Shown here piece by piece: positions 17,425 through 19,983 of a DNA stretch of 64,000 nucleotides. Location: contig JABIPA010000059.1 of the NCBI GenBank assembly GCA_018698675.1, positions 15,784 through 79,783 on the forward strand, written 5' to 3'. Origin of the DNA: a bacterium. Lineage in GTDB: Bacteria > Margulisbacteria > Marinamargulisbacteria > JABIPA01. Positions within the stretch are counted from its first letter, which is position 1; every line of letters begins with the position of its first letter. A program made the translations under genes and the position numbers. Below the pieces are notes generated by a model, which ran no database searches, was not told where the DNA came from, and worked only from the letters and a program-made list of their open reading frames with translations.

Positions 17425-17477
17425 AAAATATATGGAGACCGCGATGAGACTAGAACTCACGACCTCCTGCGTGACAG
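17425..17477. repeat. att-like direct repeat: degenerate copy of tRNA-Asp 3' half plus 10 flanking bp
   Basis: The sequence 'aaaatatatggagaccgcgatgagactagaactcacgacctcctgcgtgacag' matches 19898..19950 ('aaaatatatggcgggagcgatgggactcgaacccacgacctcctgcgtgacag'). About 46 of 53 bases are identical, in the same orientation. Confidence 0.8.
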
Positions 17478-17519
17478 CTATTAACGCATTATAGGGCAGC
17501 AAGGGCATATAGCGCCCAA

Positions 17520-19796
17520 TTAAGCTCGGTTGGGTTCGTATTTTTTTGCAAGTTTTAGCATCTCATCATAGTGGGCTCCGTCGGCAACTTTAACATACTC
17601 CAAAATATTTCTTAAAACTTCAGGAGTTTCGCTAAGCAAAGTAGGGTCATGGGTCATGCTTTCTTGAACTTGGTCTTTGTGTGAAAAAATATGAGTGAAA
17701 ATCAATATTTTAGTTTTTTTGTTATCGTCAAATAAAATCTTATTAAATTGGTCGGTGAAGTTGTCAGCGAGACTGGGAAATCTAAAACCCAAAAAAGTTT
17801 CTAAAAATCGTCTAGAAACGTTAGGCATTTGATAAAAATACTCTAATGATTTTTCTGCTGTCTTGTATTTGGAATTTATATATATTAAATAAAATAGATA
17901 GTTGTATTCGGAATCAAATCGCTCTAAAAGATTATCAAGCGGGAGTAGCCTGGAGAGTCTTTTATCATCGTTTTGTTCAGCTTTGACCATATAAAAACTG
18001 CTCACTTTGTCGTTACCACTTTTTTTAAACCAGCTTTTTACTAATCTGAAAAATGTAAAATTATGGGTAAATACGAACAGCTGATAGGAAGTATTTAGGC
18101 TATTGAACAGCATTGAATATGCATGAAAAATTGCATTTTGATCGAGACTTGAGACTGGGTCGTCAATTACAACAATTCCATTATCAAGGTCAAAATCCTT
18201 ATCATAAAGGCTTTTTATAAAATATGTAAAAGCTATTGCTGTTTTTTCTCCTTCACTTAAGTGATTTGCGATATCTCCGTTTCTAAGAATTTTATAGCCA
18301 TTTTCTTCAACATCAAACTTCAGTTGAGAATGACCTAGGTACCCGTGAAGTAATTTATCCATTTCTTCAGCAGGTTTTCGATGTTCAATAATATTGGCTT
18401 CGAATTTTTGGATACGACGTTCTATATTTGCCAAAAGATTATCGAACTTTTCTATCCTTTTAGTCGAATCTTCTATGAACATAGTGTCTTTCTTAAATTT
18501 ATCAAGAATTTCAGTGTTGATAATATGATTTTCAATATTCGACCTTGTAGCATCAATTTCGGATTTAAAATTCATCGTTCTTTCATTGTGTTTTTTTATT
18601 AGTTTATTTGACCTTTCAAATATAGTTAGGATTTCGTCGTCAAAATTTGGAATTATTAGATCCTCATATTGTGTTCGTTCATAAGAAATAGCTATAAAAG
18701 GATTCTTCTTCTTGCCTTGAAGAAGCCTCTTTAGCTCCTTAAGGAAGTTCGTTCTACTTTTTTCAAGGATTTTGATGGCATCTATCGTGCTTTTATAATT
18801 TGCATAATAGTCTTCATAAAGGGCTTCTGGGCTTATTAGCTCAACCTCTTCATTTAGGGACTCATCAATAGATTTTTCGACCTCCCCGATTTCGTGCATA
18901 AAATTTTGGAATTCAGCATTAAAATGTTGATTCAGATTATCGAGAACATCTGGGTTTATCTGGTTTTCGCAAAACAGACATTGAGAGGTTGCTCTCTGCT
19001 GATACAGACTTAATCCTCCTTTTACCCAATCCTGAAGCTCGCTATCTTCTTTTAACCTAGGAATAGGCTTGGAGGTCAATGTGCGTGAAAGAAGGGCAAT
19101 TGTTTTAGTCTCAATGTCTAATAGGAGGCTGGCGAATGGTGTTAGTTCTTCTAGGATGTTTTTTTGTTTAGAGGACTTTTTTATTTGAAATTCGGCAATC
19201 TGCTCGTCAGTAAAGGAAAGGGATTCAGTAGTCTTTAGCTCTTCAAAACTACCGAGCTTTTTTTTTAAGTTCGCTTGGGTATAATCTGTATAAATTGTTT
19301 TCTCAGGAGATCTAAGATCTTCTTTTATTCTTTTTGCTTTTTCAGAAAGAAATTTTTCCTGTTCTTTAATGATTTTATTTTTATTCTGTGCACGTTCATT
19401 TTTTTTGTCAGTAAGAATAATTGACTTCTCTTTGTATTTTTCAATTAATCGCTGAAACCTGATATTGCCTTCGCCTAAGAAGAATATTGGGGTTATAGTA
19501 TTTGACGAAGTAAAAATGTTTTTTTCAGTGAATGACTGATTAAAGACTTTAATTTTATTGTGAGAATAGCTACCTCTAGAGGTTAGGTTGTATATTGTGC
19601 TATCTGTCATTTCTAATTCAAAATCAAATTCATCATCATTGTTAGTAATGAAAGAACCTAAAAAAGTTGACAGAGTAGTCTTCCCTGAGCCATTCCATCC
19701 ATAAATTAAATTTAGTTTTTGAAAGTCTGGCAGGTTACTTGACCAAGTGTAGTCGCGAAAGCTTCTAAATTTTAAGCGCCTAATTTTTTGGATCAT
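17520..19796 (-). CDS. RloC/PrrC-like AAA_13-type ABC ATPase with zinc-hook coiled coil and C-terminal candidate anticodon nuclease domain
   Basis: The Walker A is 'IYGWNGSGKTTLS'. A long charged coiled-coil insert contains the CxxC 'SQCLFCENQ'. The ABC signature is 'LSEGEKTAIAF', the Walker B/D-loop is 'GIVVIDDPVSSLD', and the H-loop is 'VFTHNF'. The C-terminal ~150 aa contain 'SRRFLETF...(~35 aa)...FTHIFSH', resembling the PrrC/RloC R-x3-E...H triad. Confidence 0.65.
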   Translation of the reverse strand: MIQKIRRLKFRSFRDYTWSSNLPDFQKLNLIYGWNGSGKTTLSTFLGSFITNNDDEFDFELEMTDSTIYNLTSRGSYSHNKIKVFNQSFTEKNIFTSSNTITPIFFLGEGNIRFQRLIEKYKEKSIILTDKKNERAQNKNKIIKEQEKFLSEKAKRIKEDLRSPEKTIYTDYTQANLKKKLGSFEELKTTESLSFTDEQIAEFQIKKSSKQKNILEELTPFASLLLDIETKTIALLSRTLTSKPIPRLKEDSELQDWVKGGLSLYQQRATSQCLFCENQINPDVLDNLNQHFNAEFQNFMHEIGEVEKSIDESLNEEVELISPEALYEDYYANYKSTIDAIKILEKSRTNFLKELKRLLQGKKKNPFIAISYERTQYEDLIIPNFDDEILTIFERSNKLIKKHNERTMNFKSEIDATRSNIENHIINTEILDKFKKDTMFIEDSTKRIEKFDNLLANIERRIQKFEANIIEHRKPAEEMDKLLHGYLGHSQLKFDVEENGYKILRNGDIANHLSEGEKTAIAFTYFIKSLYDKDFDLDNGIVVIDDPVSSLDQNAIFHAYSMLFNSLNTSYQLFVFTHNFTFFRLVKSWFKKSGNDKVSSFYMVKAEQNDDKRLSRLLPLDNLLERFDSEYNYLFYLIYINSKYKTAEKSLEYFYQMPNVSRRFLETFLGFRFPSLADNFTDQFNKILFDDNKKTKILIFTHIFSHKDQVQESMTHDPTLLSETPEVLRNILEYVKVADGAHYDEMLKLAKKYEPNRA

Positions 19797-19897
19797 GCGA
19801 CCCTCATTTCGAGATTTCGTTGAATGTGTACCAGATGTGTACCAATTTTATTTCCCCTTAAAAGCAAAAAAACACCATTTAAGGTGCTTTTGTGACT

Positions 19898-19950
19898 AAA
19901 ATATATGGCGGGAGCGATGGGACTCGAACCCACGACCTCCTGCGTGACAG
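19898..19950. repeat. att-like direct repeat overlapping 3' half of intact tRNA-Asp
   Basis: The partner copy is the degenerate repeat at 17425..17477. Confidence 0.8.
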
Positions 19951-19983
19951 GCAGGCGTTCTAAACCAACTGAACTACGCCCCC
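19906..19983 (-). tRNA. tRNA-Asp (anticodon GTC)
   Basis: The reverse complement reads GGGGGCGTAGTTCAGTTGGTTAGAACGCCTGCCTGTCACGCAGGAGGTCGTGGGTTCGAGTCCCATCGCTCCCGCCA. This is a cloverleaf with a 7-bp acceptor stem, a GTC anticodon in a CTGTCAC loop, a GGTTCGAGTCC T-arm, and an encoded CCA. Confidence 0.9.

Follow-up and report, generated by a model that had tools for sequence, protein, structure and literature searches.

Within a 64,000-nucleotide stretch of chromosome from an uncultured marine bacterium of the Margulisbacteria (GenBank contig JABIPA010000059.1, positions 15,784 to 79,783; hereafter the window), a gene for an RloC-family protein lies between the tRNA-Asp(GTC) gene and a decayed copy of that gene's 3' half. 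We put at about even the chance that this locus is what is left, decayed and immobile, of one or more insertions by an integrase at a tRNA-Asp hotspot, later remodelled into a small cluster of defence genes. What the locus shows is not a demonstrable mobile mini-island; it is better read as an ordinary scar at a tRNA hotspot. An earlier note on this DNA had described the same interval as an integrase-less island of 2.4 kb bounded by attachment-site (att)-like direct repeats, either decayed or mobilised in trans. The features on which the argument turns are listed here.

19906..19983, minus strand: intact tRNA-Asp(GTC) with encoded CCA (ARAGORN; Rfam RF00005, 70.6 bits)
19898..19950, minus strand: tRNA-proximal repeat copy, spanning the anticodon loop through CCA and the next 8 nt (repeat search, core search)
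17425..17477, minus strand: distal (left), decayed repeat copy, the tRNA-Asp 3' half with its 8-nt flank (repeat search, alignment)
17372..17395, minus strand: second tRNA-Asp-derived relic, gene bases 8-31 of 78 nt, covering the D arm and the 5' strand of the anticodon stem (repeat search, local alignment)
19855..19897, minus strand: predicted intrinsic terminator of tRNA-Asp, with a stem-loop at 19868-19891 and a T tract (terminator scan; conserved in the sister species)
17520..19796, minus strand: candidate anticodon nuclease of the RloC family (AAA_13 / PDC-S06), 758 aa (Pfam, PADLOC, motifs, AlphaFold2)

The tRNA-Asp gene and its partial copies

ARAGORN finds a lone tRNA gene in the window, the tRNA-Asp(GTC), and together with the Rfam score it bears out the intact gene described earlier. 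Its 3' half recurs to the left as part of a direct repeat of 53 nt, in which 17425-17477 matches 19898-19950 at a spacing of 2473. The two copies align with 46 of 53 positions identical (87%), so that the earlier count of about seven mismatches is confirmed. In terms of the tRNA, the repeat opens with the first base of the anticodon loop and takes in everything up to the encoded CCA and the 8 bases that follow it (TATATTTT). This non-tRNA flank is the same in both copies, and it replaces the shared flank of about 10 bp that the note had proposed. The 20-nt core of the repeat, CACGACCTCCTGCGTGACAG, occurs exactly twice in the 64 kb when up to three mismatches are allowed, and shuffled sequences are expected to contain none. 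The same search found no further copy of the core left of 17425. The note had advised a search there for additional fragments of the tRNA-Asp 3' end; what exists is a separate relic of the 5' part of the gene, at 17372-17395.

Upstream of the left copy there is nothing that resembles the 5' half of the tRNA (local score of 10, compared with 10.5 for shuffles). The repeat therefore has a sharply defined 5' edge, and the possibility that the left copy is a full-length tRNA pseudogene is ruled out. All seven mismatches are confined to 22 nt comprising the T arm and the 3' strand of the acceptor stem, and on either side of this cluster the copies match perfectly, over 20 nt and 11 nt. One T-stem pair is changed on both sides from G-C to A-T, a G in the T loop has become T, and the other four changes lie in the acceptor 3' strand or at the discriminator.

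The second relic lies 30 nt downstream of the distal repeat, in the sense of the tRNA, and overlaps codons 4-11 of a 173-aa open reading frame (ORF). It is identical to the gene at 19 of 24 positions, or 15 of 17 in its core, and its local alignment score of 24 was reached by none of 3000 shuffles (11.3+-2.0). In the whole search its blastn E value is 0.88, and it is significant only when its position is taken into account. The resulting order of 3' half, spacer and 5' part resembles the head-to-tail junction of tandem tRNA genes.

Two further candidate signals lie near the intact gene.

20000..20028, minus strand: candidate sigma-70-like promoter of tRNA-Asp, TTGATT-17-TATAAT (consensus scan, 10 of 12 matches)
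19823..19844, minus strand: two tandem 11-nt units, AATGTGTACCA and GATGTGTACCA on the plus strand (read from the sequence)

The former, judged by its match to the consensus, would function as the promoter of tRNA-Asp. The tandem units sit between the tRNA terminator and the start codon of the RloC-like gene, and may be an operator, a promoter element or a binding site for a regulator.

The RloC-family gene between the repeat copies

The sole long ORF between the repeat copies is that of the 758-aa protein, as was noticed from the ORF list at the outset, and the protein is a member of the RloC family by sequence criteria. It matches Pfam family AAA_13 over its full length (4.1e-134). As a single protein it also gives a near-full-length match to the hidden Markov model PDLC04894 of the PADLOC candidate family PDC-S06 (2.5e-202, residues 1-750 of 758), a family for which anti-phage activity is not established in the literature searched. 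A weak PADLOC match to PrrC is limited to the C-terminal nuclease domain (7.7e-6).

Conservation was judged on alignments of 108 and 55 family members. The ATP-binding cassette (ABC) motifs are invariant or at least 90% conserved, and include Walker A (G33-T41), the ABC signature LSEGE (513-517), the Walker B and D-loop residues D545, D546, P547, S550 and D552, and the switch histidine H578. Both cysteines of the CxxC in the coiled-coil insert, C273 and C276, are invariant, and form a putative zinc hook. Near the C terminus, the triad R662-x3-E666...H706 is conserved at 100%, 96% and 99%, respectively. ABC-ATPase motifs, a coiled-coil insert with CxxC and an Arg-x3-Glu...His triad are the features that define RloC, and the catalytic triad of the Geobacillus kaustophilus protein is R692/E696/H737 (PMC2610378). 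The spacing from glutamate to histidine is 40 residues in our protein versus 41 in that of G. kaustophilus. Given these motifs, the protein would be expected to have tRNA anticodon-nuclease activity.

The AlphaFold2 model (mean predicted local distance difference test score of 86) shows an ABC head like those of SMC and Rad50 proteins, split by long helices (109-161 and 328-469) of a coiled-coil insert that spans about 350 aa, and a C-terminal domain made up of helices only. Foldseek searches with this model retrieved SMC, Rad50 and Lamassu LmuB heads with coiled coils, and a sequence search found no solved structure of RloC or PrrC.

The protein shares with G. kaustophilus RloC the ABC head, the insert with CxxC and the triad (PMC2610378, PMC3458546). 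Like RloC, it is encoded by a stand-alone gene with no link to type I restriction-modification (R-M), and many of its homologs bear the Joint Genome Institute name 'wobble nucleotide-excising tRNase'. It differs in that its host is an uncultured low-GC bacterium and its PADLOC class is the candidate PDC-S06, and the likeness is one of motifs rather than of direct alignment to a characterised RloC. To our knowledge, PrrC has no coiled-coil or zinc-hook insert and is always encoded inside an hsd (type I R-M) locus. Our protein resembles PrrC in its weak C-terminal similarity and in the logic of its catalytic triad. However, because it carries the coiled-coil insert within its 758 aa and no hsd genes adjoin its gene, it is not a PrrC.

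A search of 5.8 billion proteins found the nearest relatives to be just 38-39% identical, and the relatives span Bacteria and Archaea. Two homologs were viewed in their genomic context. One lies among toxin-antitoxin, SIR2 and PIN genes and the other beside a serine recombinase and tRNA-Ser, and these two contexts share no conserved partner gene.

What is known of the family suggests that the protein would serve as an abortive-infection effector built from a Rad50-like ABC ATPase with a zinc-hook coiled coil, and that its sensing of DNA damage or phage attack would unleash the C-terminal nuclease on tRNA anticodon loops. The distal tRNA fragment would be dispensable for this activity, and at most might now act as the terminator of the RloC-like gene. 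Islands of every sort typically integrate into tRNA genes. The presence of a tRNA nuclease in a tRNA-targeted island had been singled out as striking; we regard the pairing as coincidental and without mechanistic content.

Relatives of the locus and its left flank

Same-species contigs from at least eight sample assemblies were retrieved by exact-protein look-ups with the RloC-like, 173-aa, SirB-like and PQQ proteins. These contigs (L002-L007 and L009-L018) are 99.9-100% identical to the window, and none departs from its arrangement.

A stretch of 17 nt just 3' of the 173-aa ORF, at 16870-16886, contains six public contig ends or scaffold gaps (L003, L005, L009, L011 and L013, with an N-gap in L004). 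Several contigs also stop inside tRNA-Asp, at 19912-19939. tRNA genes break assemblies. The cluster of contig ends was considered as a sign of a 3-kb indel polymorphism and judged weak, and no contig with an alternative junction was found; it probably reflects shared Saanich-Inlet-type read sets reused by several assemblies, or a gap in coverage.

More distant relatives were sought with the PQQ/BamB-like protein of the right flank, which yielded one contig of a sister-species metagenome-assembled genome among genome contigs and none among metagenome contigs. The protein is 85-86% identical in the sister contigs L001 (from SI072_bin15) and L008. The sister species has the same tRNA-Asp, with an identical sequence in the alignments to L001, and synteny extends to the right. 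The RloC-like gene is not at the locus; downstream of tRNA-Asp are instead a 141/146-aa gene and a DUF6973 gene. The two sister strains (L001, 139-2732; L008, 1-1886) are 98.9% identical nearby and diverge 1.5 kb from tRNA-Asp. Beyond DUF6973 come genes for HsdM and a YhcG/PDC-S02 nuclease in L001, and small ORFs unrelated to them in L008. Since the tRNA and right flank are the same and the downstream genes differ, the site is a variable, defence-rich hotspot in this lineage.

L008 carries a tRNA relic of its own. At 1701-1716, 1643 nt downstream of its tRNA, there is an exact 16-nt match to the 3' end of tRNA-Asp and its flank (AAAATATATGGCGGG; E=0.006), which grows to about 22 nt if mismatches are allowed and fits the flank in the window better than that of its own strain. 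This relic suggests repeated events at tRNA-Asp. At four-fold degenerate sites the window species and the sister are 54% identical, compared with 87% for the repeat copies, so that the duplication, 13% diverged, would be younger than the species split if the left copy is neutral. Such an age fits the absence of the duplication from the sister. In a distant relative (L024), the order tRNA-Asp, PQQ, SSB is kept and housekeeping genes lie downstream of the tRNA. Both the sister species and L024 have a single tRNA-Asp at the locus.

To the left of the repeat are, in order, the 173-aa gene, a gene for a SirB-like protein of 110 aa, the gene for a 940-aa MkoC-like protein and that for an ankyrin protein. 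Three of these are specified as follows.

16883..17404, minus strand: membrane-anchored protein, 173 aa, outside the repeats (ORF; HMMER relatives)
13324..16146, minus strand: Mokosh type II (MkoC-like) SF1-helicase protein, 940 aa (PADLOC MkoC, 2e-268; Pfam AAA_11/AAA_12)
12004..13233, minus strand: ankyrin-repeat protein (weak PADLOC match to candidate PDC-M72A, 2.6e-6)

The MkoC-like gene lies 1.3 kb beyond the left repeat, outside the repeats, and the defence cluster is therefore not confined to the 2.4-kb interval. The 173-aa protein has no match in Pfam, PADLOC or NCBIfam. A word-indexed search returned only the protein itself. However, an exhaustive HMMER search found 54 distant relatives in addition, 20-33% identical and members of an uncharacterised family of about 160-200 aa, and the ORF is on this account a real gene. 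No ortholog of it was found in the available sister contigs, and the 146-aa gene of the sister was rejected as its positional ortholog (E=41). With both this gene and that for MkoC lying left of the repeat, the variable and defence region exceeds the 2.4 kb of the earlier picture.

The window otherwise represents core chromosome, with genes for DnaE, GatAB, MnmE, YidC and Jag. Three large ORFs have no match to any family (24863-27622, 919 aa; 2435-4573, 712 aa; 61407-63458, 683 aa).

Origin of the locus

Most likely, an integrase-bearing element with an att site centred on the anticodon loop would have recombined with tRNA-Asp, and this recombination would have left, 2.4 kb downstream, a duplicate of the gene from the anticodon loop to the 3' end with a short flank. 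Loss of the integration module would have followed, and the interior would have been reworked by deletion or replacement. What remains of such a history would be the stand-alone RloC-family gene by tRNA-Asp and, beyond the scar, lineage-specific genes including that for Mokosh II. In favour of this origin, the repeat is non-random and starts at the anticodon loop, and its direct orientation and its place beyond the 3' end of the tRNA are the signature of islands in the Islander collection. The homologs of the RloC-like gene that were viewed in context reside in defence or mobile settings, and MkoC is nearby.

Islander collects islands with a tyrosine integrase that lie between a regenerated tRNA gene and the 3' fragment displaced from it. 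Anticodon-centred sites account for 2083 of the 3919 islands mapped by Islander and are the commonest layout of tRNA-gene (tDNA) attachment (PMC4383910). As in those islands, our locus has an intact target tRNA at one end and, on its 3' side, a cognate fragment in direct orientation that starts in the anticodon loop (an 'A-type' site), with defence cargo between them. Two other Islander features, a tyrosine integrase in the interval and lineage-specific DNA from the inner edge of the tRNA-proximal repeat, are absent (PMC4383910). Our locus also departs from Islander islands in being 2.4 kb long with one gene, in having repeats that are 13% diverged and in that no empty site was seen; the sister has no RloC-like gene in the interval but has other DNA there, and all of the same-species contigs have the insert. 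Thus, the proposal of an attL/attR island stands as regards the position and orientation of the fragment and the absence of the gene from the sister, is unsupported as regards an empty site and is contradicted as regards a boundary at the repeat edge.

Several observations weigh against an origin by integration. The absence of a recombinase from the flanks, correctly noticed earlier, extends to the whole window, where no integrase or integrase fragment and no transposase or resolvase domain was detected in any ORF tested. The empty tRNA-Asp site looked for among relatives was not found, since no same-species contig retrieved has an empty site or an alternative allele and the sister locus is occupied by other DNA. 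In addition, the left copy has the acceptor strand CGCGGTC and a U at the discriminator and is unable to pair with the resident 5' half; it is thus not simply the displaced original, unless decay was clustered. An anticodon-loop crossover model should make the distal copy the original of the host, and the left copy resembles another tRNA-Asp allele more than it does an original that has decayed evenly.

Homology between the window and the sister species ends leftward at about 19861/19855 (blastn with both sister contigs ends at 19861). It takes in the terminator and reaches about 43 nt into the interval from the tRNA-proximal repeat. In this region the similarity to the tRNA-proximal flank of L008 scores 26, compared with 14.7+-2.6 for shuffles (p=0.002), and the same test is weaker for L001 (p=0.03). 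The first 43 nt or so inside the interval are therefore common to a species that does not have the insert, the repeat is not a clean boundary and lineage-specific DNA does not start there. A simple integration after the species split would put element DNA in those nucleotides. Nor does a single integration event predict the 5'-part relic that lies beyond the distal copy. Finally, a foreign origin of the RloC-like gene was sought in its composition and no signal was found, as its GC content, third-position GC content (GC3) and codon usage are host-like. With the closest homolog at 39% and host-like codon usage, nothing points to recent or ongoing mobility.

On a rival account, the left copy would be no att site and would represent a relic of a duplicated or tandem tRNA cluster, ancestral or borne by a donor, with the cassettes acquired by homologous or illegitimate recombination on the tRNA and terminator and without an integrase. 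We hold this to be possible, though on the doubtful side. The order 17477->17425 followed by 17395->17372 has the look of a head-to-tail tRNA junction. The mismatches are concentrated in two stems that vary between tRNA alleles, the acceptor and T stems, and one pair is changed on both sides. Such an account also accommodates the missing integrase and the synteny with the sister, which covers the terminator, so that new DNA begins after the terminator and not at the repeat; similarly, variable content in L001 and L008 starts 1.5 kb from the tRNA and not at the tRNA. However, the sister and L024 have one tRNA-Asp each at the locus, the same 8-nt flank outside the tRNA follows both copies, and the 5' relic is only modestly significant at the scale of the whole search. 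The exact start at the anticodon loop, moreover, fits site-specific recombination and is unlike random deletion.

We consider it improbable that the interval is a still-mobilisable element of 2.4 kb, without its own integrase and moved in trans by one specific for tRNA-Asp, in which the terminator of about 43 nt is a shared cassette end. Both species do have a short integrase-less segment by tRNA-Asp, of 2.4 kb in the window and 1.6 kb in L008, with a relic of the tRNA 3' end after it. The 43 or so tRNA-proximal nucleotides are common to both while the cargo is different, and the repeat ends are the perfect 20-nt and 11-nt blocks. However, the repeats have diverged by 13%, the cargo has no relative above 39% among the 5.8 billion proteins, the left-copy variant is confined to this species in the metagenome and viral collections, and every contig seen has the same fixed arrangement. 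The proposed element has no known integrase, and the relic in L008 is only 16-22 nt and of different extent. It would be similarly far-fetched to propose a family of integrase-less mini-cassettes that serves tRNA-Asp with a common end of about 43 nt, a tRNA-derived distal repeat, an integrase acting in trans and differing cargo, of which the RloC-like gene in the window and the 141-aa and DUF6973 genes in L008 would be examples.

Att-like repeats around DNA that has no recombination or transfer genes are known from the cis-mobilizable elements (CIMEs) of the literature on the Streptococcus element ICESt. Our locus is comparable in its att-like repeats and in having no such genes between them. 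In contrast to CIMEs, it has no identified cognate integrative and conjugative element or integrase, its repeats are decayed, and there is no sign of accretion or mobilisation.

We find it very unlikely that the left copy, instead of being a neutral mark of the boundary, has been kept for a function of its own, whether as a terminator of the RloC-like gene, as a decoy that mimics a tRNA and draws the nuclease, or as an element in the 5' untranslated region of the 173-aa gene. It lies 42 nt past the stop codon of the RloC-like gene, in the tRNA sense, and folds as an 11-bp hairpin followed by a U tract, AUAUAUUUUU (-15.1 kcal/mol). By inspection of the sequence, five of the seven substitutions create or keep hairpin pairs. 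However, the fold z-score is just -1.9, all available strains are identical, and random mutants are equally stable in 24% of trials, or in 7% with positions fixed; selection of the substitutions to build a terminator hairpin is thus unsupported by the mutation controls (p=0.07-0.24). A decoy is unlikely because the anticodon stem, whose 5' strand is absent, cannot form.

Of the two fates that the earlier note offered for the island, a decayed remnant is thus the one we retain, at the even chance given above, and mobilisation in trans is unsupported and has little probability. If the locus is indeed an insertion remnant, it adds one more case of a single defence gene that persists by a tRNA gene after the element that delivered it has decayed. 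Precedents exist for every feature of the locus: tRNA-fragment repeats that mark present or past islands, remnants without an integrase, clusters of defence genes at tRNA hotspots, and RloC/AAA_13 proteins. What is new is one further, divergent example, a gene of the RloC family in a degenerate islet linked to a tRNA, whose product, from an uncultured marine bacterium, is at most 39% identical to anything known. The locus also warns against delimiting an island by a tRNA-fragment repeat alone, as the edge of the repeat, the edge found by comparison and the reach of the defence cluster do not coincide here. Mini-cassettes, if real, would give defence genes a site-specific vehicle of minimal size; the locus would carry greater weight only if their continued movement were shown by junction reads or a cognate integrase.

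Searches for a donor of the left copy returned little. Its variant was matched in viral and metagenome contigs only within the same species (L009), and a plasmid search gave tRNA matches only. A phage attachment site (attP) was also sought through the 3' half of the resident tRNA. The matches were lytic-type phage contigs with replication genes and no integrase, which encode a full tRNA-Asp and are not relevant to integration. Two such contigs from IMG/VR (L027, 6424-6500; L028, 5945-6021) have a tRNA-Asp whose 3' 44 nt are identical to those of this bacterium, along with RecA-like, DnaB-like and 2OG-Fe(II) oxygenase genes.

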